DNA of 64,000 nucleotides from a virus (taxonomy: Duplodnaviria > Heunggongvirae > Uroviricota > Caudoviricetes): the IMG/VR virus record IMGVR_UViG_2880389630_000005, one strand, 5' to 3'. How positions within the stretch are numbered: position 1 is the stretch's first letter; each line of letters starts with the position of its first letter. Shown piece by piece: positions 5,457-46,962 of the stretch. The position numbers and the translations under genes were made by a program. The notes below the pieces were generated by a model. It saw only the letters and a list, made by a program, of their open reading frames with translations, was not told the origin of the DNA and did not search any database.

Positions 5457-5693
5457 ATGATGGTTAGAAATGAAGTAATGAACAAAGACTGGCACCGCGA
5501 GTACATCGTTGCCGCTGTGCACACCAAAGGTTTTACATTGCGTGAACTTTCTGAACGCGCTGGTCTAAAAAAAGACTCTTTAAAAAATGCACTGTATCGC
5601 TCATGCCCTAAATATGAACGCATCATAGCCGATGCTATTGGTGTGGAACCTGCGGAGATCTGGCCAAGCCGGTATGCCAGTAAGGCGGCTTAA
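5457..5693 (+). CDS. ner: Ner-like DNA-binding protein
   Basis: 78 aa; resembles Mu Ner (…KDWHREYI…EIWPSRY…); immediately upstream of transposase. Confidence 0.8.
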   Translation: MMVRNEVMNKDWHREYIVAAVHTKGFTLRELSERAGLKKDSLKNALYRSCPKYERIIADAIGVEPAEIWPSRYASKAA

Positions 5694-7735
5694 TGTTTTA
5701 TTCAGCCAATGAGCTGGCCGGTCTTCCTGGTTTGCCCGGTACAGTTCAGGGGGTGCGCTGGACGCTCAATCGGATCACAGAGACGCACCCGGAATGGAAG
5801 CGCAAGCGTGAAGGCACCAAAGCATTCGAGTATCACATCGACTGCCTGCCCGCTGAAGCGCAGAAAGTTTTACGTAAGCGCCTGACCCATCAGGTCCTGG
5901 AAGATACGCAACTGCCCGCCGTGGTTGAGCAGAAGGCAGTTAAAAACGTCGCCGTTCGCGATGAACTGGAGGTGATGGTCAAATGCCCGGAACTGGCATT
6001 ACGCGAAGTCCAGGCACTGACTGACAAGCAAAAGGCCATCGCTGATGCGCGGATATTGCTGGCTACTGAAGTGCATAAACTGCGCGAATACGCCGGAATG
6101 ACCAGGAAGGCCGCGTTAAAGCACATCGTTGATGGTGTGCGCATGGGGGCGTTACCTGACCGCATTATCGAAGCAGCGAATACTGCAAATGCACGTCAGG
6201 GAAAGCGAACCGGTGTCAGCACCGGCAGCCTGGATAGCTGGTACTCCAGCTGGGTGATGGCGCGCGGTGATGCCAATCAGTTACTGGCGTTACTGGCTCC
6301 CGGTCATCATAAGGGAACACCGTGGGAGCAGGTCTGGTGGTTGAGCGATTTCTTTATGTTCTATCGCTCATGGAAGCGCCCGACCGTTGAATACGCGTAT
6401 CGCGAGTTTTCAGCCTGGTGGCATGAAAAACACGCGAATGATGCGGGAATGCTGGCAGTACTGCCTTCAGTTCACGCAGTCAGACGGGTGTTAAGCAGCG
6501 TCCCGGTGATTGTTAAAGAGCGTTTCCGCTCCACCGGTTCAGCCTGGCGTTCGCTCAATCCCTTTGTGCGGCGCGACTGGAGCACATTACCGGTTAATGC
6601 GGTATGGGTCGGGGATGGTCACTGTATGAAAATGACCGCGTTTAACCCACTGACCGGCAATATTTTCCGGCCAGAAGTGACGCTGGTTATGGATGCGGGT
6701 CAACGCTTTGTTGTGGGCTGGTCACTGTCCCTGTCGGAGAACGTGATAGCCGTTGCTGATGCGTTACGTTACGGCATGGCGCAGCACGGGATACCGCTGA
6801 TTTATTACTCCGATAACGGGGGCGGCGAAAAAAACCGGGTGCTTGACGCCGATATTACCGGGATTTTGCCCCGGCTGGGTGTGGAGCATCACACGGGGAT
6901 ACCAGGTAACCCACAGGGGCGCGGGGTGATTGAAAGGCTTAACAAGGAAATTCCCCGGGATGTGGCCCTGAGTTTCCAGACGTACTGCTCAAAGGGAGCA
7001 GACAAGGAAACCGTAATGATGCAGCAACGGATTATGCAGTCAGCCATTAAGGCCACCCACAAAGGGAAAGAACTGACAAAACGGCAGGTTAAGGCGAGGG
7101 ATGAAGTCCCCACCTTTGAGCAACTGATGGCAGCCATAGAACTGGAAGTCAGACGCTATAACAACCGGCCACACAGCAGCCTTCCTCGCAAAGAGGATGG
7201 CGAGCATTACAGCCCGGCAGCGTATCGCCGGAAACTGATAAAAGAGCAGAATGTTGAAATTGATTTCTTGTCGCCGGAAGAACTGCATGAAATGTTCAGA
7301 CCGGAGGTGACGCGCAAAACATTTCGCGGGGAAATTCAGTTATTCAACAATATTTATTACTCGTATGAGCTGGCCGCAGAGCACGGGAATGAAGTCAGGG
7401 TCAGTTACGATATTCATGATGCAAACAGCGTCATTGTCCGGCGGGCTGATGGCTCTTATATCTGCGATGCCATCTGGAACGGTAACAAGGTTGATGCCTT
7501 CGCTAAACCAGTTATCGAGCAAAAACTGGAGAAACGCGTCAGAGGCCGCATTGCACGGGCCACGCAGAAAATCGAAGAGGCTAAACGCGAGCTTACCCCG
7601 GCTATTACGCAGAAGCCTGACTTTAATCTGGGATATGGACTGGAACGCCCGGAGAAAAAGGAAAAAGAAGAACTTTATTTATTCGCATCTGAACGCGAAC
7701 GCAATTTAAAGAAAAACGGCACAAACAACCGTTAA
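5693..7735 (+). CDS. Mu A-like DDE transposase
   Basis: 680 aa; start overlaps ner stop (TAATG); size and position as Mu A. Confidence 0.9.
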   Translation: MFYSANELAGLPGLPGTVQGVRWTLNRITETHPEWKRKREGTKAFEYHIDCLPAEAQKVLRKRLTHQVLEDTQLPAVVEQKAVKNVAVRDELEVMVKCPELALREVQALTDKQKAIADARILLATEVHKLREYAGMTRKAALKHIVDGVRMGALPDRIIEAANTANARQGKRTGVSTGSLDSWYSSWVMARGDANQLLALLAPGHHKGTPWEQVWWLSDFFMFYRSWKRPTVEYAYREFSAWWHEKHANDAGMLAVLPSVHAVRRVLSSVPVIVKERFRSTGSAWRSLNPFVRRDWSTLPVNAVWVGDGHCMKMTAFNPLTGNIFRPEVTLVMDAGQRFVVGWSLSLSENVIAVADALRYGMAQHGIPLIYYSDNGGGEKNRVLDADITGILPRLGVEHHTGIPGNPQGRGVIERLNKEIPRDVALSFQTYCSKGADKETVMMQQRIMQSAIKATHKGKELTKRQVKARDEVPTFEQLMAAIELEVRRYNNRPHSSLPRKEDGEHYSPAAYRRKLIKEQNVEIDFLSPEELHEMFRPEVTRKTFRGEIQLFNNIYYSYELAAEHGNEVRVSYDIHDANSVIVRRADGSYICDAIWNGNKVDAFAKPVIEQKLEKRVRGRIARATQKIEEAKRELTPAITQKPDFNLGYGLERPEKKEKEELYLFASERERNLKKNGTNNR

Positions 7736-7753: not shown

Positions 7754-8647
7754 ATGAGTTTAATTACGCAATTAAATGACGTAATGGCCCGTCGCGGCTA
7801 TACGCAGACCCACGTCGCCCGTGCCATTGGTCGTAGCAGCGCCGTTATCAGCCAGTATTTACAGGGTAAATATCAGGGCGATATGGCTGATATTGAAGAA
7901 CGCATTTCTACCTTTGTGACCCGTGAGCGGGAAAAGGAAAACAGCCGCCGTATTAAAGCAAAGTTTGTGACCACCGGTATGGCTGCCAAAGGACTGGAGG
8001 TGCTGGCCTACGCTCACCTGGAATGTGAAATCTGTGTGCTGTATGGCGCAGCAGGTCTTGGCAAAACAATGATTCTGCGTGAATACGCCGCCAGAAACCG
8101 GGATGCGCTCCTGATTGAGGCTGACCCGGGCTATACAGCCAGAACACTGCTTGAGGAGTTGTGCCGCCAGCTGGGGGTAAAGGTTCGCGGCAACATTCAC
8201 GAACTGATAGATGCCTGTGTGCGCGAACTGCGTGATTCCGGTCGTCTGCTAATGGTGGACGAGGCTGAACTGCTCCCCTATCGCGCACTGGAGGTTCTGC
8301 GCCGTCTGCATGACAAAGCGGGTATCGGGGTTGTTCTGGCGGGTATGCCTCGTCTTCTGATTAACCTCAAGGGGCGTCGTGGTGAGTTCGCCCAGTTATA
8401 CAGCCGTGTGGCGCTGGCGCTTAACCTGGGCGATACGCTGGCGCAGGAAGATTTTAACCAGATAGCCACCGGGCTGATGCCGGAAGCAGCAGAACCGGAA
8501 ATCAGCGAGGCGCTTTATACACGTTCGCTGGGTAATGCCCGCCGCCTGTTCAAACTGGCGCGTGGTGTGTACCGGATTTGTGATATCAGCGATGCGCCGG
8601 TCAGTGTGCAGGCCATTGATAAATTCGCGGAAATGTTAATTCACTGA
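7754..8647 (+). CDS. Mu B-like AAA+ transposition/target-DNA activator
   Basis: 297 aa; Walker A GAAGLGKT; follows transposase. Confidence 0.9.
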   Translation: MSLITQLNDVMARRGYTQTHVARAIGRSSAVISQYLQGKYQGDMADIEERISTFVTREREKENSRRIKAKFVTTGMAAKGLEVLAYAHLECEICVLYGAAGLGKTMILREYAARNRDALLIEADPGYTARTLLEELCRQLGVKVRGNIHELIDACVRELRDSGRLLMVDEAELLPYRALEVLRRLHDKAGIGVVLAGMPRLLINLKGRRGEFAQLYSRVALALNLGDTLAQEDFNQIATGLMPEAAEPEISEALYTRSLGNARRLFKLARGVYRICDISDAPVSVQAIDKFAEMLIH

Positions 8648-14631: not shown

Positions 14632-15099
14632 ATGCAGACCTTCAGTGAAACAGATCTTCGCGATGCGCAGGCACTGCTGCCCGATTCCGTGCAGCAACTG
14701 ATTAGCGTGATTGGCTTCCCCGCCCTGACCCGGTTAATCCGTTCTTTTGGTGGTGTGACGTTAAGCGGTAAAACCGGCGCACACGCCGAACGCACCGGCG
14801 GTGTCCATGCCCTGTTACATGACGTGCTGACCGAAGACGAAATCAACAAACTGATCCGCTTTCTTGGCGGTGCACCGTTTTACATTCCCCGTTGTGATCA
14901 TGCTTTACGTGCCCTGCGTAACACCCGTTTTATGGCTGATTTACAGCAGCATGTAAAAGGCGGATGCTCACACCGACAGGCGCTGGCACTGCTCTGTCCC
15001 CGTTACGGCATTTCAGACCGGTACGCATGGCAACTGATACACCGACGACAAAAACAGACTTCGCTGAAAAGCCCCACCCAGGTGGGGCTTTTTGATTAA
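14632..15099 (+). CDS. Mor/C-family transcription activator (middle operon regulator-like)
   Basis: 155 aa; FYIPRCD and C-terminal RYGIS...AWQLIHRR resemble Mu Mor (from memory). Confidence 0.65.
   Translation: MQTFSETDLRDAQALLPDSVQQLISVIGFPALTRLIRSFGGVTLSGKTGAHAERTGGVHALLHDVLTEDEINKLIRFLGGAPFYIPRCDHALRALRNTRFMADLQQHVKGGCSHRQALALLCPRYGISDRYAWQLIHRRQKQTSLKSPTQVGLFD
15071..15093 (+). terminator. Rho-independent terminator overlapping the mor-like stop
   Basis: Stem GCCCCACC/GGTGGGGC followed by TTTTT. Confidence 0.65.
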
Positions 15100-27483: not shown

Positions 27484-27697
27484 GGCGGCTCCCGGGATGA
27501 AGTTCCCGATGGAGGATAACGCCCGGAAATACATCACCACGGAAGCGGTGATCGTTGAAAACACCGCTTATTACCGGCGCGCTGTTCAGGATGGTGACCT
27601 GATTCTGGTGGCTGAAGAGCCTGAAACGGCAGAACAGGACACCGGACCAGAAAAAGCGAAGGTGAAGAAAGAGAAACAGGTGGGCTCCGATGAGTGA
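27464..27697 (+). CDS. Mu gp38-like small protein
   Basis: 77 aa; immediately upstream of sheath gene. Confidence 0.55.
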   Translation: MNKMKVKAAPGMKFPMEDNARKYITTEAVIVENTAYYRRAVQDGDLILVAEEPETAEQDTGPEKAKVKKEKQVGSDE

Positions 27698-29111
27698 AAT
27701 TCAGTTTGACACCATTTCGGGCAGTATCCGTAAGCCCGGTGTGCATTTTGAGTTTAATACCCGGCTGGCCGTTAACACGTTGCCGGGTAACGAACAGCGT
27801 GTTCTGGTGATTGGCCCGATGCTGCCTGATGGCACCGCCACCCCCCTGAATGCGGTTTCTGTGTATTCCGAAGACGAAGCGGATTTGTATTTCGGGGCCG
27901 GTTCACTGGCCGCAGCAATGGCGCGCGCGGCCATTAACGCCAACAGCTATCTGCAACTGGATGTTATCGGTATTGCAGACGGTGGTGCAGGAAAAGCAGC
28001 AACAGGCGCAGTTAAAGTCACCGGCACTGCAACCAGCAGCGGTACGCTGTCGGTATGGATTGCTGGCGAGCAGATCGCCATTAATGTGGACGTCGGGGAT
28101 GAACCGTCGAAAATCATTCCGGCACTGGTGACGGCAATGACGCAGACGCCATCGCTTCTGGTCACGGGGGAATACAAATCTGACACCTCTCAACTGACAG
28201 TGACCGCCCGGACCAAAGGTACCTGGGGGAATGATATCACCCTGTCGGTATCCACCACTGCAACCGGCCTTGTAGTGGCTACCACGCCGATGGCGAGCGG
28301 CGAAATGGACCCGGATATTCAGCCCGCACTTGATGCGGTCTTTGCTGCCGGTCACAACATTCTGATTTGTCCGTTCAGTACCACGCCAGCCCTTGCCGCC
28401 CTGAAGCAGCACCTGGAGAAAACCGGGAACGCGATGGAACAGCGTGGCGCGATTGGTTGTGCGGGCTGGACAGGTAGTCTGGGAAACGGGATCACCCTGG
28501 CAGCCGGTGTGAACAGCGGGCGCGTGTCTGTCCCCTGGTATCGTGGTTCTGTGATGCTTCCTGCTGTGCTGGCCGCCATCTACGGCGCAGTAATGGCGAG
28601 CGAAGAAGACCCGGCACGCCCGCTGAACTCGCTGGCGCTGTCCGGGCTGGATGTGGTCGCCATGTCACAGCGCGAAAGCCGTAACGAGCAGGAAAGCGCC
28701 CTGCATAACGGCCTGACACCGGTTGAGGTTGGACCGGGTAATACGGTGCAGATTGTGCGTGCGGTCAGTACCTACACGGTGAACGCTCAGGGTGTGGCTG
28801 ATGTCTCGTTACTGGATATCACGTCCATCAGAACACTGGACTACACCCGCAAGGCGTGCCGCGAACGTATCAGCCTTCGCTTCCCGCGTGAAAAACTCAG
28901 CACCCGAACCATCGCAAAAGTGGAAAGCGAACTGTATGACGTGCTGCTCAAGCTGGAGGAGTCTGAAATTCTGGAGAATGTGGAAGCGAATAAGGCAAAA
29001 CTGCGCGTTCAGCGAAACGGGAAAGATGCAAATCGCCTGGACTGCGCGATCCCTGCCGACGTGGTTAACGGCCTGCATGTGTTTGCCGGTCGCATCGACA
29101 TGATTTTGTAA
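27690..29111 (+). CDS. Tail sheath protein (Mu L-like)
   Basis: 473 aa; contractile-tail sheath size and position. Confidence 0.9.
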   Translation: MSEIQFDTISGSIRKPGVHFEFNTRLAVNTLPGNEQRVLVIGPMLPDGTATPLNAVSVYSEDEADLYFGAGSLAAAMARAAINANSYLQLDVIGIADGGAGKAATGAVKVTGTATSSGTLSVWIAGEQIAINVDVGDEPSKIIPALVTAMTQTPSLLVTGEYKSDTSQLTVTARTKGTWGNDITLSVSTTATGLVVATTPMASGEMDPDIQPALDAVFAAGHNILICPFSTTPALAALKQHLEKTGNAMEQRGAIGCAGWTGSLGNGITLAAGVNSGRVSVPWYRGSVMLPAVLAAIYGAVMASEEDPARPLNSLALSGLDVVAMSQRESRNEQESALHNGLTPVEVGPGNTVQIVRAVSTYTVNAQGVADVSLLDITSIRTLDYTRKACRERISLRFPREKLSTRTIAKVESELYDVLLKLEESEILENVEANKAKLRVQRNGKDANRLDCAIPADVVNGLHVFAGRIDMIL

Positions 29112-29892: not shown

Positions 29893-30051
29893 ATGACCAT
29901 GAGCCGTCCCGAGCTGGACGGCTGGCTTGCCGCCGTTGACAGGCTGAACGGCGGCGGCTCAGGAAGAAAGGACACCTCACAGACCACCCGCCAGTCATTT
30001 AAATCCCTCAGAAAGAAACGCAGAAAAGGTAAACAGAAAAATGGCCGGTAA
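29893..30051 (+). CDS. Small basic ORF between chaperone and tape measure (possible frameshift extension)
   Basis: 52 aa, very basic tail; overlaps tape-measure start. Confidence 0.25.
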   Translation: MTMSRPELDGWLAAVDRLNGGGSGRKDTSQTTRQSFKSLRKKRRKGKQKNGR

Positions 30052-32314
30052 TTTCAAAGTTGGCATGACCCTGACTGCGAAGGACGAAGCCTCGCAGGTT
30101 CTGGAAAAGGGACAAAAACAGGTTATCAAAGCCACCGAAGGTGTAACAAAGGCAACCCGGAAGGCAGGCGCAGAGCAGACGCGTACCGGGCAGGAAAGCG
30201 TTAACAGCACGAAAAAGGCGGCAAAAGAGATACAGCGTGCCGCCCGTGCCCGGGAAACGCTCGGTATTCGTGCAGAACGTGAAATCCGGCGTGAAATTTA
30301 TCAGACGGTTGCCAGCTATAACCGTCTGGCCCGCGCCGGTTTTGAATCTGCGCAGGAGCAGGAGCGCGCCATGCAGGCCACCCGGGAAAAAGCCCGGGCA
30401 CTCAAGCGTGAACTGGATGGCGTTACTCAGGCACAGATGAAGATGGCGAAAACGCCTGTTATCCCCGAACGGGGGCGTTTTGCGCGTGCGGCTGCATTTG
30501 GCGGGAATGCCATGACAATAGGCGGCGGAATTATGGCAGGAGCCGCCATTATGACGCAACCAGTCAGAAATCAAATGAGTTATGAACGTCAGCTCAGCAT
30601 GATGGCGAACACGGAGTTCAGTGATGGTGGTCTGGAAGGCAGGCAGTTTGGGCGTGAAAAGCTGAAAAACAGTATCCGCGCGGCGGTAACGTATGGTGGC
30701 GGAACGAAAGAGGATGCAGCTGAAGCAATGAATGAGATGTTGGCCAGCGGCGCTTTTTCCTGGGATACCGCGAATAATCTCTTACCGCAGATTATGAAAT
30801 TTGCTACTGCATCCGGCGCATCTCCACGCGATCTGGTCACTATGGCGGCCAAAGCTAAACAAACATTTGGACTGACAGATGACGACCTCCCGGCCATGTT
30901 TAATATGGCTGTCGCAGCAGGTAAAGCGGGTAATTTTGAGCTACGGGATATGGCGGAATATCTTGGACCTCAGATGGCATTAGCTGGTAACGCCGGAATG
31001 AAAGGACTGGATGGACTCCAGAAATTACTGGCATTTAATGAGGTCGCAGGGATTGCCGCAGGCAGCAGCAGTGAAGCAGGTAATAACGTTGTAAACCTGC
31101 TGGCCAAACTTTTCAGTAGTGAATCAGCAACAAGGGCGAAAAGCATCACGATTGATGGCAAAGGTATTGATCTACCTGGTACGTTGACCCGAGCTATGGA
31201 AAACGGCATTGATCCGATAGAAGCATTTTCACGCCTCACTGATAAAGTCACCGCGAACAACAAACAATATCAGGAGCTTCAGAAGCGTCTGGCAGCAACA
31301 AAAGACAAAGGCCAGCAGGACAAAATCCTAGAGTCTATGGCGAAAATTCTTGAGGGGTTCGGTGTTGGTGAGCTTGTTGGTGATATGCAGGCACTGAAGG
31401 CAATCCTGGCTTACAGGAATAACCCGGAATACCTAAAGCAGGTCGAAACTGAAATCAGTCAGCAACGCACCCTGCCGGAAGGTCAGCGCGCCGGAGATCT
31501 GGATTTTAAATTCATGTCAGGTACGAATGATTTTAAAACCGAACAGGCTAAAAACACGCTTGAATTTTCACAAATGGACAGCGTGAAAAAGCTGGCTGAT
31601 GCGTCCGGTACTGTGGCCGATGCCATAAGCTGGGCGGGTGAAAAGTTTCCGGGGCTGACCACGGCAGTGGTGGGTGCTACGACCGCAATTGAAGCGATGA
31701 CCGCAGCGGCTCTGACATGGGCCGGGATCAAAATCCTGACCGGGGGTAAACCCGGTGGCAAGGCTGGCGAGGTTGTTGGTGATGTAATTGAAAACACGGT
31801 CAAAAAAGGCAAAGGATTTAAATTCCCCGGTATTGCCGGTGGCCTGCTTTCTTTAGGTGGCACTGTTACGGCACTGGCCACCGCAACCAGCCCGGAAGAA
31901 GACGCCGCCGTCGAAGGAAGCGAAGAACGCTGGAAACGCATCCGCGCCCGATACACCCAGGAAGAAATCGACGCCGCCCGCAAAAAATACCAGCCATGGT
32001 GGCAGTTTGGGGAAGGCTATTCCACCGAAAACGAAGAATGGTTGAGGCGCTGGGAGGAAGACAGGAAAAAAGCCGCAGCTGATGCCCTGCCATCACCGGC
32101 GCAGGTTAACAAAGCCGCAGGAAACACAAAGCCTGAACCGGCATCAACACAACCCGGACGCATCACCCAGCCGGAATACCTCACGCACTGGGGGCCACCT
32201 GCCAGCCCCATTAATTTCACCACACAACTGGTGCTCGATGGTCAGGTCGTGGCGGAGGCAGTGAACAAATACAACCTTCAGGACGGTAACAGAGGTACGG
32301 GAGGAACTTACTGA
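30041..32314 (+). CDS. Tail tape measure protein
   Basis: 757 aa; Ala/Gly-rich helical protein at the tape-measure position. Confidence 0.9.
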   Translation: MAGNFKVGMTLTAKDEASQVLEKGQKQVIKATEGVTKATRKAGAEQTRTGQESVNSTKKAAKEIQRAARARETLGIRAEREIRREIYQTVASYNRLARAGFESAQEQERAMQATREKARALKRELDGVTQAQMKMAKTPVIPERGRFARAAAFGGNAMTIGGGIMAGAAIMTQPVRNQMSYERQLSMMANTEFSDGGLEGRQFGREKLKNSIRAAVTYGGGTKEDAAEAMNEMLASGAFSWDTANNLLPQIMKFATASGASPRDLVTMAAKAKQTFGLTDDDLPAMFNMAVAAGKAGNFELRDMAEYLGPQMALAGNAGMKGLDGLQKLLAFNEVAGIAAGSSSEAGNNVVNLLAKLFSSESATRAKSITIDGKGIDLPGTLTRAMENGIDPIEAFSRLTDKVTANNKQYQELQKRLAATKDKGQQDKILESMAKILEGFGVGELVGDMQALKAILAYRNNPEYLKQVETEISQQRTLPEGQRAGDLDFKFMSGTNDFKTEQAKNTLEFSQMDSVKKLADASGTVADAISWAGEKFPGLTTAVVGATTAIEAMTAAALTWAGIKILTGGKPGGKAGEVVGDVIENTVKKGKGFKFPGIAGGLLSLGGTVTALATATSPEEDAAVEGSEERWKRIRARYTQEEIDAARKKYQPWWQFGEGYSTENEEWLRRWEEDRKKAAADALPSPAQVNKAAGNTKPEPASTQPGRITQPEYLTHWGPPASPINFTTQLVLDGQVVAEAVNKYNLQDGNRGTGGTY

Positions 32315-36994: not shown

Positions 36995-37567
36995 ATGAAT
37001 ACGGTTGATTTATTTCGTGCCATGTTACCACCGGTCAGCTATGACCCGAACGGGAAATATATTTCAACAGAACTGAACGCAGAAGCAGCCATTATGGATG
37101 AAGTAAAAGCGTCAGCTGCACGAGTGCTTGCATCTGTCACACCATTTTACGCATCCATGACACTGTCTGACTGGGAACGAGTGTATGAAGTAATACCCCG
37201 CGATGGTGCCACACAGCAGGAACGCCGAGAAAATATTCTTATAAAGATGGCTGCAACTGGTGGGTTATCTATCCCTTATTTTAAACAACTTGCAGCCAGC
37301 CTCGGGTACACCATAACAATTACTGAACTCCATCCATTTAGAACGGGGGTAAACCGATGTGGTGATCGTCTCTATATAACAGATGCCCGATGGATTTGGC
37401 AGGTTAATGTCACAGGAAGCAAAACGCCAGCTTACAGATTCAGAACCGGAGTATCTGCTGCCGGGGAACCGTTACTTTCCTTTGGTGCCCCTGTACTGGA
37501 AGAAACATTTAAAGAGCTTAAACCCGCTTTTACTTATTGCCATTTCACATATAAGGAGGAGCAGTAA
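36995..37567 (+). CDS. Tail protein (Mu gp48-like)
   Basis: 190 aa; position. Confidence 0.75.
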
Positions 37568-39945
37568 TGCAAAATCTGATGCCCCCGATAAATACACCGG
37601 ATCAATTGTTTCATGATGGTGACCCCACTCAGGGGATAGAAGGAACCATCGTAACTGCTGATTATTTAAACAATCAGCAGGGGGCAATCCGTGATTTACA
37701 GCAGGAACTCCTTAATGTTCTTGGTAGTGTACATATTCAACCTGCCCCCCAAAAAACGGATCAGCTACTTACCGCGCTTCGTGCGCTGCTGTTAAGCCGC
37801 AAGAATCCGTTTGGCGATATCAAATCGGATGGCACGGTAGAACGCGCTCTTGAAAATCTGGGGTTACAGGATGTAAAAGCTGGTTCATTGAACAATCTGT
37901 ACACTAACCATTCCCGTAGTGTCTTAATGGAATTGCCGTTATTATTCCCGGACTACGATACGGTGCTGGCTGCTCAGTCTGGTGCGGAATATATGTATCC
38001 ACAGGGATTTGTGGTGACAGGAGAAAAAATCTATCTGAGTTATACCGTTGAGCCAAAGCAGACACGGAACGTTATAGTTCAGTACACAACATCCGGCGAA
38101 TATGAGGGATATTATTATGTCGATAATGGAGGTCGTGGCGTTGTCAGCGAAGGCCTTGTGGTGACAACGGATTACGGTGGATTACGTTTGTTCATGTCAG
38201 GAGAAAATGGATTACTGAAACAGTTTTCGCTTGATGGGGCAATTTCTGGTTCAGTATTGCCGTTAATTGATGAACATGATGTCGGTGTTTACAACCAGTT
38301 CAGCTATCGTAAAAACCGCTGGGTGGTTGAACAGTCAGCGCCGGAAGTGGGAGGCCTGATCACCCGCACAGTATTTGCGGTGTATGATTTTCAGTTTCGT
38401 CGGACAGGGACATTCACATTACCGTTGCATGATTCCGGATATATCACGGAAAGCACAGACAGCTATGCAAGACGCTTCACAAAACGTCAGGGAATTGCTG
38501 TGGGAGACGATTATATTGCCTGTTCTTATGGTGGCTATTTTAATACCGGGGCATCAGCCGGATTTAACCAGTTTCAGGGGGTTAAGGTCTTTTCTCCGGA
38601 TGGAGTAAAGCAGCAGGAATCCATTCTTCATCCCCAAAAAATGATAGATGTGCTTACCAGGCAGGGTTTTACACCTTCGCGCATTGAGAACGAAGGAATT
38701 TGTATTTCTGACGACGGCGGCAGTATATATTCGCTTTATATCTTTCTGGAGCGTGGGTTACCACAGGCTTATCAGAAAGGAATTGTTCTGATGAAAGAGT
38801 TCAGTACTGGCAGAGATGCTATTGATTTTCGTCAGGCAGCCTGGTTGTACACGGGGTTTGATGTGTCTCATGCCAGTATTGGAACATTTCCCCGTAGTGC
38901 CCAGGGGTTGGTAAACCCGGTGTTGGGGACGGTATTCACATCCCTGTCTGAAATTCTGGCATATATGCGTTCTGTGAGTCAGAAATGGTTTTGTCTGCAT
39001 ACAACCACGACACCGATTAAAGATCTGAGTGGAAATGACATTCCTGCTGACAATTATGTGTTCATCAAGAATGCTAATAACCAGACATTCTATATAACGC
39101 AGGAGTCAGCTGAAGGTGGAATAAAATATAAAGCTGTCACTACAGACAGCGGAGAATATGGTTTTCAGCGACAAAGAGAGGCAATCTGGTCCAATGTTAT
39201 CACCATCGCACAAAAGAGCGATGGTGAGGATCAGTTTAATCGTATTATCGCTGCCTCGAAAAGTGGTTCGGGTAAAAATCAGGATAAAATACTGGTAGTT
39301 GACCAACAGGCATCAGAGGGGAATAACACGCTGGTAATTGGCGGTGGTTCATCTGTGTTCAGGTCAGCGACAGTGATTGATTTTGCAACGAATCAGGATG
39401 CAAATGCCACAGGAGGAGAAAAGAGATGGCGCATAGATTCATCAGGAAATCTCCGCCCTTATACAGATAATACGTATTCGATCGGTTATGCCTCATGGCG
39501 ACCCGCACAGGTTTATTCAGCTACGGGAAGTATCAGTACATCAGACCGGACTCATAAACAGGACGAAACAATTCTGTCGGATGCAGAAAAAAGGGTTGCC
39601 AGAAAGCTGCTCGGGTATATCTGTCGGTTCCGTTTCAGGGATGCAGTGTCCAGCAAAGGGAACGCAGCCAGATGGCATGTAGGAGTGATTGCTCAGGACG
39701 TACAGAAGGTCTTCTCCGAGGAAGGGCTGGACGCTTTTGATTACGGTATTTTGTGTCGTGATGAATATCCGGCGGAATATGAAGTGGTTTACGGGACTCG
39801 TATGGAGCTTGGTTCTGACGGACTCCTTACAATGGAAGAATACGATACCGGAGAGCGCAAGCTGGTCAGGGAGGCTGGTGAAATAATGTCTGTAAGGAAT
39901 GATGAGCTGCATTATTTCATGCTGGCATCGCTGTCTGGCCAGTGA
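37567..39945 (+). CDS. Tail fibre protein with C-terminal intramolecular chaperone (peptidase S74-like) domain
   Basis: 792 aa; C-terminal SDRTHKQDE...[11 protein letters not shown] matches the self-cleaving chaperone signature; last gene before prophage right end. Confidence 0.8.
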
Positions 39946-40733: not shown

Positions 40734-41102
40734 GTGTCAGACAAACTCCATGAGACAAATTATCCCGACGACCATAACGACCGCCTCTGGTGGGGACTGC
40801 CCTGCACCGTGACGCCCTGTTTCGGGGCACGTCTGGTGCAGGAGGGTAACCGGTTGCATTACCTTGCCGACCGCGCCGGTATCAGAGGCCTGTTCAGCGA
40901 TGCAGATGCGTACCACCTGGACCAGGCCTTTCCGCTGCTGATGAAACAACTGGAACTCATGCTCACCAGCGGTGAACTGAATCCCCGCCATCAGCATACC
41001 GTCACGCTGTATGCAAAAGGGCTGACCTGCAAAGCCGATACCCTCAGCAGTTGTGGTTACGTTTATCTGGCTGTTTATCCGACGCCCGAAATGAAAAATT
41101 AA
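40734..41102 (+). CDS. cbeA: Type IV antitoxin CbeA (YeeU)
   Basis: 122 aa; GTG start; near-identical to K-12 YeeU from memory (…WWGLPCTVTPCFGARLVQEGNRLHYLADRAG…). Confidence 0.9.
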   Translation: MSDKLHETNYPDDHNDRLWWGLPCTVTPCFGARLVQEGNRLHYLADRAGIRGLFSDADAYHLDQAFPLLMKQLELMLTSGELNPRHQHTVTLYAKGLTCKADTLSSCGYVYLAVYPTPEMKN

Positions 41103-41190
41103 CTCTCCAGAATAGCCTTCTGCTACGGCCTGGTGTTTTCACCACGCCACTTTTCCATTTTTATATCTGCATATCAGGAAAATCTTCAGT

Positions 41191-41565
41191 ATGAAAACAT
41201 TACCTGTATTACCCGGGCAGGCGGCCAGTTCTCGCCCGTCTCCTGTTGAAATCTGGCAGATACTGCTGTCCCGACTGCTGGACCAGCACTATGGCCTCAC
41301 ACTGAATGACACACCGTTTGCCGATGAACGTGTGATTGAGCAGCATATTGAGGCAGGCATTTCACTGTGTGATGCGGTGAACTTTCTCGTGGAAAAATAC
41401 GCGCTGGTGCGTACCGACCAGCCGGGATTCAGCGCCTGTACCCGCTCTCAGTTAATAAACAGCATCGATATCCTCCGGGCTCGCAGGGCGACCGGCCTGA
41501 TGACCAGCGACAATTACAGAACGGTAAATAACATTACCCTGGGTAAGTATCCGGAGGCGAAATGA
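41191..41565 (+). CDS. cbtA: Type IV toxin CbtA (YeeV)
   Basis: 124 aa; MKTLPVLPGQAASSRPSPVEIWQILLSRLL... matches YeeV from memory. Confidence 0.9.
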   Translation: MKTLPVLPGQAASSRPSPVEIWQILLSRLLDQHYGLTLNDTPFADERVIEQHIEAGISLCDAVNFLVEKYALVRTDQPGFSACTRSQLINSIDILRARRATGLMTSDNYRTVNNITLGKYPEAK

Positions 41566-41756
41566 TGACACTGGAAGCCGACAGCGTTAACGTACAGGCG
41601 CTGGATATGGGGCACATTGTCGTTGACATTGATGGTGTTAATATCACTGAACTGATTAATAAGGCCGCTGAAAACGGTTATTCACTCCGCGTGGTGGATG
41701 ACCGTGACTCTACCGAAACACCGGCAACTTATGCCAGCCCTCACCAGTTGCTGTAA
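41562..41756 (+). CDS. yeeW: YeeW-like small protein
   Basis: 64 aa; start overlaps cbtA stop. Confidence 0.7.
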   Translation: MMTLEADSVNVQALDMGHIVVDIDGVNITELINKAAENGYSLRVVDDRDSTETPATYASPHQLL

Positions 41757-41912
41757 GACAATGCAGTGATACAGGGTATAGTGCCATTAACCACAGAAAC
41801 AGCACTGTTGTCCTGTATTAAGCAGGCAAGAGAAGATGTCCTTACCCTGCGCCATCTGCAGCTTCTGCACCAGAACCGGTGAATCTCACTCAACAGGCTT
41901 CATTTCCCCTGA

Positions 41913-41941
41913 CGCCAGCCTGAATACAGCTGGCGTTTTCA
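41913..41941 (+). terminator. Rho-independent terminator
   Basis: Stem CGCCAGC/GCTGGCG followed by TTTTCATTT. Confidence 0.6.
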
Positions 41942-42196
41942 TTTATAAACAGAAAGGAAAACCGATAATAATGGAATGGACGCCCCGACCATGAAGCAAC
42001 GGTAGGATATTACTGATAAACCTTCCAGTGGAGGTGCGTTATGGCCGTTTTAACGATTAGCATTGACCTGACAAAAAATGAATTCCAAATCCACGGTCTG
42101 GGTAGGAACAGAAAAATCTAAGCTCAGAAAACGGATTAAAGTAAGCGTCAACGGAGCACCGTATTGACGCTTATTTATTGGTGAGAACTACGTTCC

Positions 42197-42553
42197 ATGG
42201 CAGGAGTTCGTCAACACGGTTGGAGGGCCATTCCGGCAGTATGCTCAGAATATGGCGCAGATACGCTTCCGGATCGATACCGTTCAGACGGCAGGTGCCT
42301 GCTTTTCCGGCAACAAGCAGGAATCTCAGCGCTGAAGCAGGAATTAGAGGTAAAAACGCCCTACCGGGCCATGAATCACCCGGTCATTGGAGTAGTAACC
42401 AAAGCAGATTTAGCCAGCATGGAACAAATATCTTTGGTGACAAGTTGGTTACGGGAAGCTGGAGCGCACAACGTGTTAGTAACCAGTGCAGTTAATAACA
42501 ATGGAGTTACAGAACTTTTTGCCTTGCTGCATACAGAAGAAGGCTGTTGTTAA
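42197..42553 (+). pseudogene. yoeF: YoeF-like remnant (C-terminal fragment of a P-loop GTPase-like protein)
   Basis: 118-aa ORF with no convincing start; position matches the K-12 yoeF pseudogene (from memory). Confidence 0.35.
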
Positions 42554-42653
42554 TTTCGATTGGTTCTCAGATGAGAATGATGACGGTGATACACAGATAA
42601 GAATCAATGAGCAATGAGGGTTGCCGGGCAACCCTCATTGAATAAAACGGGAA

Positions 42654-42983
42654 TTACTTCGCTTCGCCGTTTTTCATTTCGCCCATAGCTTTCAGCTTTT
42701 TGGAGATATCGCGGCGTTCTTTGGAGAGCTCGGCATTTTTGATGATGTAATCGTCAACGCGATCTTCATAGTCACCTTTCATGCTGGCGATGATGCCCTG
42801 GATTGCTTCAACGCTCATCCCTGGCTTGATGTAATCGCTCAGGTTGTCCAGCAACAGGACGCGCTTCTGGTTGTCACGGATCTTTTTCTCAACGTCCTGA
42901 ATTTCACGTTGCAGTTTGTTCTTACGACGGAACAGACGAACAAATTCCAGTACGTCCTGGAATGAAGGCTTGGTAGTTTCCAT
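42654..42983 (-). CDS. yeeX: UPF0265/DUF496 protein YeeX
   Basis: 109 aa from [15 protein letters not shown]...; matches K-12 YeeX. Confidence 0.9.
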
Positions 42984-43154
42984 TTTTATACCCCTGATAA
43001 TGTGAGAGTCGGATTCGTTTAAGCAACCGCTATTCGTTAGGGCCAACATTACTCATAGCTGCCGCAGATGACAATGCTTTTATCCCTTTTCACTATCATA
43101 CCCTTTATCCTTGCTGAATCGAAGCAGCAGCAAGATGATTCTGAAGTTCAGGAA

Positions 43155-44213
43155 TTATTTGCGCAAGGCCCGGCAAATCAGATTCGATAGCAACTCAAGC
43201 TGATGTGCCGTTTCCATGTTCAGCCACACATAACCATAGATTGGTGTTTCCAAGACTTTCAGGTCATGGTGGTTATCGAGCAACTGACGCAGCTCTTCCA
43301 CAGCATCGTTCAATTTTTCCGTATTGGCAAAAACCGGCTGCGGATTACCTTCGTACAGCGCATGAACAAGGCTCAGCAGTATTTGCTGCATCATGTGCTG
43401 GGTATCACGAAGTTTTTGCGCGTTCAATAACACGAAATGGCTGGGGCGCGTGGCCCAGTATGCATTGATTTGCAACTCCAGCATACAAACCAGATTGCGA
43501 TTAATGGTCTGGATACCTTCATATATCGATTTGGGAATACGGGTTTCTTTGCTGGCGGGCGCAATCAGCCCACGCATTTTCACGGCATCGGTCAGGAGTT
43601 TTTGTAGATGGCTTTCCAGACGTGGGCGTTCGAGTAAGTTCGGTGAGAATGCAGATTGATAGACCCGATTATACTCGGTCAGACTTTTCGCCAGTTGAAT
43701 GCGCCAGTGGATGAACGCCCGTTGTGGCCAGATACCGGTAAACAACATTGCCAGTAAAGAGCCGAGGATCACATCGCCGCTTCGCCATAACGCCGTATCA
43801 ATTTCACCTGTCGGGGAACCCACAACAATTGCCAGCGTCACCCCAATCAATAATCCTTGATACGGTTTCTTGCCCAGCGCCAGCCAACCGCAAAGAAACA
43901 TCGCCGCCGCGCACCAGACTAACATCAGCGGTAACGAAATTAACTCCAGTTGCAGAGCGATAAGACCTAAAATCGAACCCAACACCGTACCGCCAATACG
44001 TTCGAAGGCACGAGGGACAACGTTCCCCCAGAACGAGATTGGCCCCATAATCACCACCATGGTGACCAGCGGCCAGGTGCTTTCCGGGATAGTAAACAGG
44101 CGGATAATGAGAAAAGTGAGCAGGAATGCCAGCGCGACCCGAGTACCATGCACAATGCGGTAATGGCGGTATACCCGGATTTCAAACGGGCTTAATGACT
44201 TATCGGCACGCAC
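43155..44213 (-). CDS. yeeA: FUSC-family inner membrane protein YeeA
   Basis: 352 aa from GTG 44213; multiple TM segments; matches K-12 YeeA. Confidence 0.85.
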   Translation of the reverse strand: MRADKSLSPFEIRVYRHYRIVHGTRVALAFLLTFLIIRLFTIPESTWPLVTMVVIMGPISFWGNVVPRAFERIGGTVLGSILGLIALQLELISLPLMLVWCAAAMFLCGWLALGKKPYQGLLIGVTLAIVVGSPTGEIDTALWRSGDVILGSLLAMLFTGIWPQRAFIHWRIQLAKSLTEYNRVYQSAFSPNLLERPRLESHLQKLLTDAVKMRGLIAPASKETRIPKSIYEGIQTINRNLVCMLELQINAYWATRPSHFVLLNAQKLRDTQHMMQQILLSLVHALYEGNPQPVFANTEKLNDAVEELRQLLDNHHDLKVLETPIYGYVWLNMETAHQLELLSNLICRALRK

Positions 44214-44410
44214 GCAGAAACTCCGTAATGAAGATGAAAAGCGCTCATAACACATCTGTCGGCCAGAAGGCGCGCCTCTGAGTTATCCGACGGACATACC
44301 GGGAACAGTGTAATTTCCCGGCAGGAGCGAAAAATTTGAAAGGCGCATCTTACTCTTTTCGCTTTCAAAAAAAGAGTGGTCTTCGCGTTAACACACCGCC
44401 CTGAGATGAA

Positions 44411-44884
44411 TTAGTGATGTTTTGGCTGCACCGCAACATACATTTCGATATCCCAGTACCCATCTTCCGCGCCATTGTTCAAGTAAACCTCGAAGCAGGG
44501 CTTTGGTAACATTTCATAAGCACTGTCCTGCAAGAGGCTATTAAAGAACTGATACCAGGGTTTAGCAAAATCATCACCGACTACACGAGCCACCGCCACC
44601 GCATACTGACCACCTGAAATTTCTGTCAGAATGACGCCCTCACTGTTTTCGGGGAGCGTAAAGTTATTCGGTACCGTCACGACGGTGTCGCAGCGTAATT
44701 TTTCGGCGGGTGTTTCATCTGGATTGTCGTAATAGACAGCAACCCACTCCTTCGGCACAATATTTTTGCTATCTATCCACATCATCAACTGCTCAAAACC
44801 TTTCTTTACCATCTGCTCCCACGGGCCAACAAGATGGAAACCTGCAACGGTACGTTTATCTTCCTGCTTAATCTCGTAGTTCAT
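44411..44884 (-). CDS. sbmC: DNA gyrase inhibitor SbmC (GyrI)
   Basis: 157 aa; [24 protein letters not shown]... matches SbmC. Confidence 0.9.
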
Positions 44885-44899
44885 GACGCCTCCACTAAC

Positions 44900-44919
44900 A
44901 CTGTTTTTATATACAGTAT
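44900..44919. promoter_or_regulatory. LexA (SOS) box upstream of sbmC
   Basis: ACTGTTTTTATATACAGTAT fits the CTGT-N8-ACAG consensus; sbmC is SOS-inducible. Confidence 0.75.
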
Positions 44920-45002
44920 AGTTGCAATATTAAAACCACAAGGAATGAGTGTTGATTATGCGAGCAGACTCGCACTCCTGCCAGTCTGCTGCAAAAGAAA
45001 GG

Positions 45003-46175
45003 TCAGGCCTTATGGTGGAAATAATCACTCAGGCGGGAAAACATGCTGCCTTCCCCGACAGATTCCAGGGTAACCAGCGGCCAGTGCGCCACCTGTTTAT
45101 CACGGTCGTAAAGTTCAATTTCCCCTACCCGCTGATGGGCGCTAATTGGCGCGGTGAGTTCTTTACCATCAAGGGTATATTTGGCTTTGATATGTGGAAT
45201 TTCGGCTTTCGGTAGCACCATCCAGAACTCTTGTTCCGTTCCCAGGGCGATATTTTCTTTATCACCATACCAGATGCGTTCCGTACCGACCTTTTTCCCA
45301 CGGTGCAAAATTTGCACCGTAGTAAAGTTTTGTTGCCCCCAACGCAGTAATTTTCTTGCCTCTTCCTCACGACCTTTTGCGCTGTCAGCCCCCATTACCA
45401 CTGCAATGAGGCGACGCTGCCCGTCTACAGCCGAAGCAATAAGATTAAACCCGGCACCAGAAGTATGGCCCGTTTTCAGGCCGTCAACATTCATGGTTTT
45501 ATCCCACAATAACCCGTTACGGTTTTGCTGGGTGATACCGTTCCAGGTGAGGCTTTTCTCACTGTACATATGATAAAACTCGGGCTCGCCGTGGATGATA
45601 GCGCGAGAAAGCACGGCTAAATCATAAGCCGAGCTATGCTGGCCAGGTGCATCCAGACCATGCACTGTTTCAAAATGCGTATCCTTGAGATGCAGCTTCT
45701 CGGCATAGTTGTTCATCATTTCAACAAACTGCCGTTGCCCACCGGCAATATAGTCAGCCAGAGCAACACAAGCGTCATTTCCGGAATCCACAATTAAACC
45801 ACGGCTTAAATCACGTACCGATACGCGATCGCCCTCTTTCAAAAACATCAGTGAAGAACCGACAAACACCGGATTATCTTTCGCCCACGCATCACGCCCC
45901 ACGGTGACAATATCGTCTGGCGTAATGCGATGACTATCGATAGCGCGATCCACGACATAGCCCGTCATCAGCTTTGTCAGGCTGGCGGGATTGCGCTGTT
46001 GATGCTCATTACCCGCGGTGAGAATCTGACCGGTGGTGTAATCCATCAATACCCAGGACCCGGCATGAATCTCTGGAGGCTGAGGTGAAAAAGGAATGTT
46101 TTCCGCCGCAAAACCAGACGATAAATTAAAAACGAACAAAGAAGCAGCAATAATAAGACGGCGTTTCAACAGCAA
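45003..46175 (-). CDS. dacD: D-alanyl-D-alanine carboxypeptidase DacD (PBP6b)
   Basis: ~388-390 aa; signal peptide; matches DacD from memory. Confidence 0.9.
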   Translation of the reverse strand: MLLKRRLIIAASLFVFNLSSGFAAENIPFSPQPPEIHAGSWVLMDYTTGQILTAGNEHQQRNPASLTKLMTGYVVDRAIDSHRITPDDIVTVGRDAWAKDNPVFVGSSLMFLKEGDRVSVRDLSRGLIVDSGNDACVALADYIAGGQRQFVEMMNNYAEKLHLKDTHFETVHGLDAPGQHSSAYDLAVLSRAIIHGEPEFYHMYSEKSLTWNGITQQNRNGLLWDKTMNVDGLKTGHTSGAGFNLIASAVDGQRRLIAVVMGADSAKGREEEARKLLRWGQQNFTTVQILHRGKKVGTERIWYGDKENIALGTEQEFWMVLPKAEIPHIKAKYTLDGKELTAPISAHQRVGEIELYDRDKQVAHWPLVTLESVGEGSMFSRLSDYFHHKA

Positions 46176-46377
46176 ACCCTCAGGTGTTTCAAATAGCTGT
46201 TCTTTTTACGGAAATACTTATGAACTGGCTGGAATAAAGTGCAAGAAAATGTGACTACTATCTCATTTTTATCTGACATGATCTGTTGCCACTCGCTGCC
46301 AAATTGTCGCGCTAAAGCTGATTAGCACGGTGATATTTGATACTCTGGCAGACAGCAGAAATAACGGATTTAACCTA

Positions 46378-46425
46378 ATGATGAATGACGGTAAGCAACA
46401 ATCTACCTTTTTGTTTCACGATTAC
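46378..46425 (+). pseudogene. sbcB: sbcB (exonuclease I) 5' stump, truncated by P22-like prophage insertion
   Basis: Encodes MMNDGKQQSTFLFHDY (SbcB N-terminus from memory), then diverges and stops at 46438-46440. Confidence 0.8.
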
Positions 46426-46962
46426 GCGCAACACCCCTGAGAACCGCCATGAACAAGGGTTTCATGATTTGTGATTTTAGTTTGGTACGCAATTTGGTAC
46501 ACAACACAATTTTCACTTCAGCGGGTAGTCATCAAACTCACCATAACGAGCATCGTTGATGATGTATGTGATCACCACAAATATCACATCTGGACTAGTT
46601 CCGTCTTCATGCGCAGGTATTTGTTCACGCCTCCCTTTCTGCAAATCCTAAAGATGAGATTTTGGGGTTTTGGGATATCTTTTTATCCTCAGTTCTCTAT
46701 CCATTCTACAAAGCAGTAATGAACCATCACCGTGTGATAGTGAGGCATCCGCTACGTTAAGCGCAGAGAAATGATGCAGTGGTGGTCGGACTGGATTGAT
46801 GAAAAGGTGTAGCAACCAACATTGCTATATCTCAGATAGCACAAAGCCTTGCAATCCAGTGCAAAGCTTTGTGTGTCTCAGTTTTTATAAATTCTTAAGC
46901 AAGAATTATAGTTATAACTATTATGTAAATTTTATGATATATATTGTATTTAAATGCTGGTT

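Follow-up and report, generated by a model that had tools for sequence, protein, structure and literature searches.

The question raised by this locus is whether a prophage that interrupts sbcB has deprived its host of exonuclease I (ExoI), or whether the gene is completed again at the other end of the prophage. The window, i.e. the whole analysed stretch of 64,000 nucleotides, contains the beginning of sbcB and the adjoining end of the prophage. The initial annotation had placed a P22-like prophage in the 5' part of sbcB and predicted that ExoI would be inactivated unless the far prophage end rebuilds the gene. The insertion was upheld, whereas the loss of the gene was not: the far end, as it stands in E. 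coli AREA_R485 and in strain S5, does rebuild sbcB. Taken together, the prophage has very probably been integrated site-specifically in sbcB, with its integrase-side arm restoring a 474-aa ExoI frame.

The sbcB stump and the att core

The stump at 46378–46440 consists of an ATG start and native sbcB codons 1–16 (MMNDGKQQSTFLFHDY, 46378–46425), followed by four phage-derived codons for AQHP and a TGA at 46438–46440. In the DNA, the native part is ATG ATG AAT GAC GGT AAG CAA CAA TCT ACC TTT TTG TTT CAC GAT TAC, which passes into GCG CAA CAC CCC TGA. Both the 16-codon ExoI N-terminus and the stop four codons after the change into phage DNA had been noticed already from the sequence itself. In the alignment with K-12 MG1655, agreement extends through the dacD–sbcB spacer and 49 nt into sbcB, and breaks off abruptly after 46426. 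The genes upstream of the stump, dacD, sbmC, yeeA and tmaR, are in K-12 order. The stump is the true start of sbcB and not a chance match, the possibility of a coincidental N-terminal similarity being ruled out by the base-for-base agreement with K-12 up to 46426.

Behind the native upstream region of sbcB there now follow the stump ORF and, beyond it, the tailspike gene in antisense orientation. When this region was scanned, no terminator-like site turned up, and the only two promoter-like sites, at 46126–46154 and 46884–46912, are both far from sbcB.

Alignment with the uninterrupted K-12 gene, which had been proposed as a check, defined the att core as 13 bp, TTTCACGATTACG (Table 1). It covers the sbcB codons F13-H14-D15-Y16 and the first base of E17. 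This was the sole identity block common to both junctions, attB and attP: left of the core the window matches K-12, and right of the core it is the integrase-side junction that matches K-12. The core is the reverse complement of CGTAATCGTGAAA, the 13-bp attP/attB core reported for Stx2c phage 2851 and Shigella phage Sf101 in PMC4159516, and in the GenBank record of phage mEp234 the 13 bp carry the misc_feature 'prophage attachment site (type 2851) ... similar to sbcB gene'. In O157 strains sbcB is among the four standard Stx-prophage sites (PMC8309913), and the two papers agree with the earlier statement that sbcB is a known integration site of lambdoid phages.

Only one junction lies within the window, as would also be seen if the stump had been left by a deletion or rearrangement, or resembled sbcB by chance, with no site-specific junction involved. 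However, the break in sbcB falls exactly at the published 13-bp core, both arms are contiguous, wholly or partly, in six free phage genomes, and the junction of the window type recurs in 489 of the 5426 complete E. coli genomes. The alignment of the core and the contiguity of the arms in free phages refute the deletion or chance reading, which retains practically no probability, and leave site-specific integration as the origin of the stump.

When the two arms were joined in silico, the resulting attP was found contiguous in the free phages mEp234, Sf101, E212 and EC.P3 (92% coverage, 95–97% identity) and was partly matched in HK140, HK544 and APC_JM3.2. Five repeats of the form TTGGTAC[GA]C, all in the same orientation, are present on the arms, three of them beside int and two at 46482–46490 and 46494–46502. 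They are kept as xxGTACxC in relatives and are putative arm-type sites of the integrase (Int). The attB sequence around the core, GTTTC-ACGATTAC-GAAAC, forms a 5-bp inverted repeat flanking 8 bp, which plausibly represents a pair of core sites with the overlap between them. In HK140 an intact UmuD-like gene adjoins the same attP, at the place where the window has a decayed remnant.

Table 1. Features of the window discussed in the text, with positions in the 64,000-nucleotide stretch.
Feature	Position	Strand	Basis or remark
Mu-type transposase	5693–7735		
MuB-like ATPase	7754–8647		
Mor	14632–15099		
Mu-like tail sheath	27690–29111		
Mu-like tape measure	30041–32314		
Mu-like tail fibre	37567–39945		
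dacD	45003–46175	-	upstream neighbour of the stump
Native dacD–sbcB intergenic region (sbcB upstream region and 5'-UTR)	46176–46377	+	aligns with K-12; now cut off from the gene body
Stump ORF of sbcB	46378–46440	+	16 native and 4 phage-derived codons; no CDS annotated in RefSeq
13-bp att core TTTCACGATTACG	46414–46426	.	reverse complement of the published CGTAATCGTGAAA
Tailspike-side phage arm of attP	46427–46962	.	holds two putative arm-type repeats and the S24 peptidase pseudogene
Decayed umuD/humD-like S24 peptidase pseudogene	46512–46763	-	internal stop; between att core and tailspike gene; annotated as pseudogene
Tailspike, P22-type head-binding N-terminal domain and beta-helix	46963–49044	-	PF09008 (E=3e-65), PF13229; RefSeq 'phage tailspike protein'
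immI-like region	49254–50943	.	Pfam P22_AR_N, P22_AR_C; RefSeq annotation of identical sequence
Antirepressor Ant	49254–50156	-	in immI-like region; small ORF next
Arc	50440–50598	-	in immI-like region
Mnt-like Arc-family repressor	50689–50943	+	in immI-like region
P22-like virion genes	52826–64000	-	Pfam P22_gp7, Phage_stabilise, P22_Tail-4, P22_CoatProtein; RefSeq annotation
gp16-like	52826–54934	-	
gp20-like DNA transfer (ejection-protein) gene	54934–55409 and 56660–57461	-	split by IS
ISEc52, IS3 family, 1250 bp	55410–56659	+	GAT target duplication; inserted in gp20-like gene, in comparison to the IS-free prophage of strain S5
gp7	57472–58164	-	
Tail needle	58622–59323	-	
gp10	59323–60741	-	
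gp4	60751–61212	-	
Coat	61423–62676	-	
Scaffold	62695–63588	-	start of portal gene next, to window end

Reconstruction of sbcB at the integrase-side junction

The far end of the prophage, where the initial annotation had advised looking for the integrase and the remainder of sbcB, was read in E. coli AREA_R485 (NZ_CP123349.1), and both were present. There were 0 mismatches between this genome and the window over positions 45001–64000, and positions 40911–45000 were also identical. The AREA_R485 prophage measures 42.3 kb including two copies of ISEc52, and its end lies 24.8 kb past the end of the window. At this end xis is followed by the gene of a tyrosine integrase, which points away from the junction, then by 181 bp of spacer and by an sbcB of 1425 bp, which RefSeq annotates as an intact 474-aa exodeoxyribonuclease I (WP_001576845.1). 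Strain S5 carries the same prophage free of IS elements (39.8 kb) with the same rebuilt arrangement. By comparison with AREA_R485, int and the rebuilt sbcB are predicted to lie about 24.8 kb beyond the window, near window-equivalent position 88,762, also in the window's own molecule.

The phage arm beside int reads ATG ACA GAC ACA GAT AAA CAA CCT ACC TTC CTC TTT CAC GAT TAC G and encodes MTDTDKQPTFLFHDY, an ATG start with 15 codons on the arm, in frame with host sbcB from codon 17 onward. The rebuilt protein shares 464 of its 474 residues with K-12 ExoI, without gaps after the swapped part. All changes are confined to residues 2–9, and the protein is one residue shorter than the native one. 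The DYE motif is kept, the catalytic Asp and Glu and the remaining protein are unchanged, and the rebuilt protein aligns over its full length with solved ExoI crystal structures. Native D15 and E17 are taken here to be the first two catalytic carboxylates of the DEDDh site of ExoI. Within the TFLFHDY codons the phage arm differs from the host by three substitutions, all synonymous (TTT>TTC, TTG>CTC), which is what one expects of sequence kept as coding.

Because the far end restores the sbcB frame, loss of exonuclease I with recombination phenotypes is not expected. The gene at the integrase-side junction is complete and in frame and has its catalytic residues, as in gene-restoring integration, and the arrangement differs from disruptive integration or active lysogeny, in which the host gene is off while the element is integrated.

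The change of residues 2–9 and the shortening by one residue could be thought to alter the stability, SSB interaction or activity of ExoI, giving an altered-function allele of the sbcB15 kind. However, the changed residues precede the exonuclease domain model, which begins in Pfam at residue 12 of the rebuilt protein, and the host sequence encodes the catalytic D and E and everything that follows them. Furthermore, the leader varies widely among species while the block TF[LY][FI]HDYETFG is constant. An altered function is therefore very improbable.

In the proposed course of events, the tyrosine integrase would recombine a type 2851 attP with attB inside sbcB, the crossover falling within TTTCACGATTACG, whose codons F-H-D-Y-(E) include that for the first catalytic Asp of ExoI. 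Codons 1–16 and the native DNA upstream of them would be displaced to the tailspike-side end and make up the stump of the window, while the arm of about 180 bp on the integrase side would bring a surrogate sbcB 5' end, MTDTDKQPTFLFHDY, fused to codon 17 onward. The far junction should then show int, next the arm of 181 bp, and then ATGACAGACACAGATAAACAACCTACCTTCCTCTTTCACGATTACG joined to codon 17 of sbcB. The prophage measures about 39.8 kb when free of IS elements, and 42.3 kb in this lineage.

Phage 21 and e14 in icd and the phages of tRNA genes follow Campbell's rule: the phage carries a diverged copy of the segment that it displaces, and the gene of the lysogen is complete. The same restoration is found here, but it is the 5' end of the gene that is replaced instead of the 3' end. 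With the 5' end replaced, the phage must supply also the start codon, the ribosome-binding site and the promoter. In Listeria comK with phi10403S and in mutL of S. pyogenes with SpyCIM1, the gene is off while the element is integrated. The sbcB prophage resembles these two in being inserted in or near the 5' part of a DNA-metabolism gene, but differs from them in that the reading frame is restored.

The integrase and the type 2851 module

The int gene was likewise read from AREA_R485, beyond the window. The encoded Int is identical to that of mEp234 in 385 of the 391 residues (98%) and has an arm-DNA-binding domain (PF13356) and a catalytic Phage_integrase domain (PF00589). With the N-terminal arm-binding domain, the C-terminal catalytic domain and the putative arm-type repeats on both arms of attP, the system has the features of lambda Int. 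The 5' part of int together with the arm is 98.5–99.1% identical to phages 2851 and 1717 and to Stx phages, and across 27 phage records the integrase-side arm keeps at least 98% identity. Among these records are long-tailed phages (mEp234, HK544, HK140), podoviruses (Sf101, E212) and Stx phages (2851, 1717). Because a near-identical arm is found in phages of such different kinds, int and attP form a module that is shuffled among lambdoid phages.

The 13-bp core of the type 2851 module, known from Stx2c phage 2851, Stx2 phage 1717, Sf101, mEp234, HK544 and HK140, is identical here. In comparison to the other phages with this module, it is here joined to a P22-type podovirus similar to CUS-3 and E212, which has neither stx nor oacB and is disrupted by IS elements. 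All the testable defining features were found, and the prophage is a P22-like phage carrying the published type 2851 module for integration in sbcB. The site, the core and the integrase type are already known, having been published and annotated in GenBank, and the arrangement as such is an ordinary one.

Distribution and conservation of the rebuilt junction

The rebuilt integrase-side junction was present in 581 of the 5426 complete E. coli genomes, and among the matches listed the annotated feature at this place is sbcB, exodeoxyribonuclease I. The 474-aa protein in exactly this form occurs on at least 1000 contigs and has been named from O25b:H4-ST131.

A search with Int, limited to one genome per species, gave 35 loci. 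At 26 loci the sbcB DNA is oriented away from int, and at 24 of these it is of full length. The full-length loci come from another E. coli and from Buttiauxella, Klebsiella sp., Erwinia, an Erwiniaceae bacterium, Pantoea, Serratia, Chimaeribacter, Rahnella, Tatumella, Rosenbergiella, Orbus, Gilliamella, an Orbaceae bacterium, Photobacterium and Parendozoicomonas. All 24 have an open frame upstream of the FHDYE-type motif, and all have ATG, GTG or TTG at the same aligned position, 3–11 (mostly 8–10) codons before the motif. The distance from the int start to the motif was 200–211 nt in 22 of the 24 loci, with outliers at 228, 239 and 255 nt.

The fixed start and the open frame persist in arms whose integrases are only 39–74% identical and which are otherwise poorly conserved. 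A start codon fixed in such divergent phage arms is hard to explain unless translation of the rebuilt sbcB is selected, and this comparison of sequences argues for selection on sbcB restoration. The core lies on the most conserved codons of sbcB, which would explain how one integrase family can use the same site in distant hosts. Hosts as far apart as E. coli, Pantoea, Serratia, Gilliamella and Photobacterium share this layout. A literature search found no explicit statement of the restoration of the sbcB 5' end or of its conservation across Gammaproteobacteria, though such a statement may still have been published; RefSeq already annotates the rebuilt sbcB as intact.

Some of the Int loci deviated from this pattern. 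In Shigella flexneri SFBU1023 (L036) and E. coli ECMA0423 (L037), only the first 107 residues of Int are present and sbcB appears fragmented; the leader of the latter is a hybrid, MTDTDKQSTFLFHDY, with a host-type Ser within a phage-type leader. These two may be decayed remnants or assembly errors. In Yersinia pekkanenii (L018) and Rosenbergiella nectarea (L027), an sbcB-like leader (e.g. VKDKPIHKTFYIGDY...) enters DNA other than sbcB and stops, which may reflect insertion at a secondary site or an unintegrated attP. Rosenbergiella nectarea 8N4 has also a second copy (L014), correctly placed beside sbcB.

In four further loci (L022, L023, L024 and L026; Int identity 50–55%), int lies about 194 nt from a tRNA-Arg(CCU) gene reading away from it, in the same geometry as for sbcB. 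Their hosts are Xenorhabdus, Candidatus Erwinia dacicola, Proteus penneri and an uncultured gammaproteobacterium. Judged from these positions, the Int family seems to have switched between the argW-type tRNA and sbcB, with the phage arm still abutting the 5' side of the target.

Probable expression of the rebuilt gene

Since int is transcribed away from sbcB, only the arm, or DNA still further upstream on the same strand, can hold the promoter for the restored sbcB. The scan of the 181-bp int–sbcB spacer for sigma-70 promoter and terminator consensus sites gave none, and the same strict scan gave none either within about 220 nt of the native sbcB start. By eye, the integrase-side arm includes the weak -10-like hexamers TATAAC and TAATTA and no convincing -35 element, and the Shine-Dalgarno sequence before the surrogate ATG is weak.

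These observations bear on the alternative that sbcB is silenced or strongly reduced in the lysogen, i.e. that the ORF is intact but the arm has no working promoter or ribosome-binding site and the lysogens are ExoI-deficient or hypomorphic. The blank promoter scan, the weak Shine-Dalgarno sequence and the direction of int, which allows no read-through, all agree with silencing, as does the wording of published accounts, in which the sbcB site is 'occupied' or 'disrupted'. However, the promoter scan is equally blank at the native start. The prophage of this lineage has decayed, with two IS insertions and the pseudogenes humD, DUF2737 and ead, yet the rebuilt sbcB is intact and identical on at least 1000 contigs. 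Also the fixed start codon and the open frame would be unexpected in the divergent arms if the gene were not translated, and the codon differences in TFLFHDY would not be expected to be all synonymous. Silencing is for these reasons considered unlikely. From the conservation we infer instead that a promoter in the phage arm drives the rebuilt sbcB and that an active protein is made.

The least ordinary reading is an improbable one: the exchange of promoter and leader for about 180 bp of arm rich in putative Int arm-type sites would put ExoI under phage-supplied control, and could so change or condition its expression, in roughly 11% of the complete E. coli genomes, among them the ST131 lineage. 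The level of ExoI could be altered, or it could be tied to the state of the prophage through binding of Int, Xis or IHF. If this were true, RecF-pathway recombination could be tuned to the benefit of the phage, which encodes an anti-RecBCD protein as well. Since the arm restores a full-length gene, 'prophage in sbcB' should not be taken as an sbcB knockout.

Prophage content and neighbouring elements

The P22-like character of the prophage, also part of the first reading, was supported by Pfam matches (PF11651, PF11650, PF11134, PF25688, PF09008 and PF10547/PF10548) and by the virion genes, which are 95–96% identical at the DNA level to those of CUS-3, EC.P3 and E212, the value for CUS-3 being 95%. 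The P22-like features found include the coat, gp4, gp10 and gp7/gp20/gp16 genes, the head-binding domain of the tailspike and immI (mnt/arc/ant). In the Lederbergvirus-type phages CUS-3, E212 and EC.P3, the order at the tail end, with gp7/gp20/gp16, immI and the tailspike, is likewise that of P22. They differ from the prophage of the window in the receptor-binding part of the tailspike and in the moron region. E212 and EC.P3 have the same attP as the prophage here, whereas CUS-3 integrates at argW with a different integrase.

Three ORFs on the + strand at 50993–52801 occupy the sieA/moron position between mnt and gp16. They encode a 239-aa protein with no function assigned, a 182-aa PIN-domain protein and a 140-aa hypothetical protein. 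A PADLOC scan of these three ORFs gave no match to a defence model. They may constitute a candidate exclusion or toxin module.

The ISEc52 junction in the gp20-like gene was found in one of the 5426 complete genomes, namely AREA_R485. A second ISEc52 copy of that genome, beyond the window, splits ninG. This prophage copy is defective through ISEc52 and should not yield infectious particles; int and the att junctions are intact despite the damage.

A complete-looking Mu-like prophage, at about 4331–40145, interrupts a CP4-44-like island (yeeT/cbeA/cbtA) that directly precedes tmaR-yeeA-sbmC-dacD. AREA_R485 has no Mu-like prophage at this site, so that the window cannot be equated with that genome throughout: upstream of about 40,146 the equation fails because of the extra prophage. 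A large rearrangement or an assembly chimera upstream of the same point was rejected, the flanks being collinear with a short (~5–6 bp) repeat at the insertion point. The Mu-like prophage looks like a recent transposition. In strain S13 the same Mu-like prophage is located in a TonB-dependent receptor gene between yeiG and lysP.
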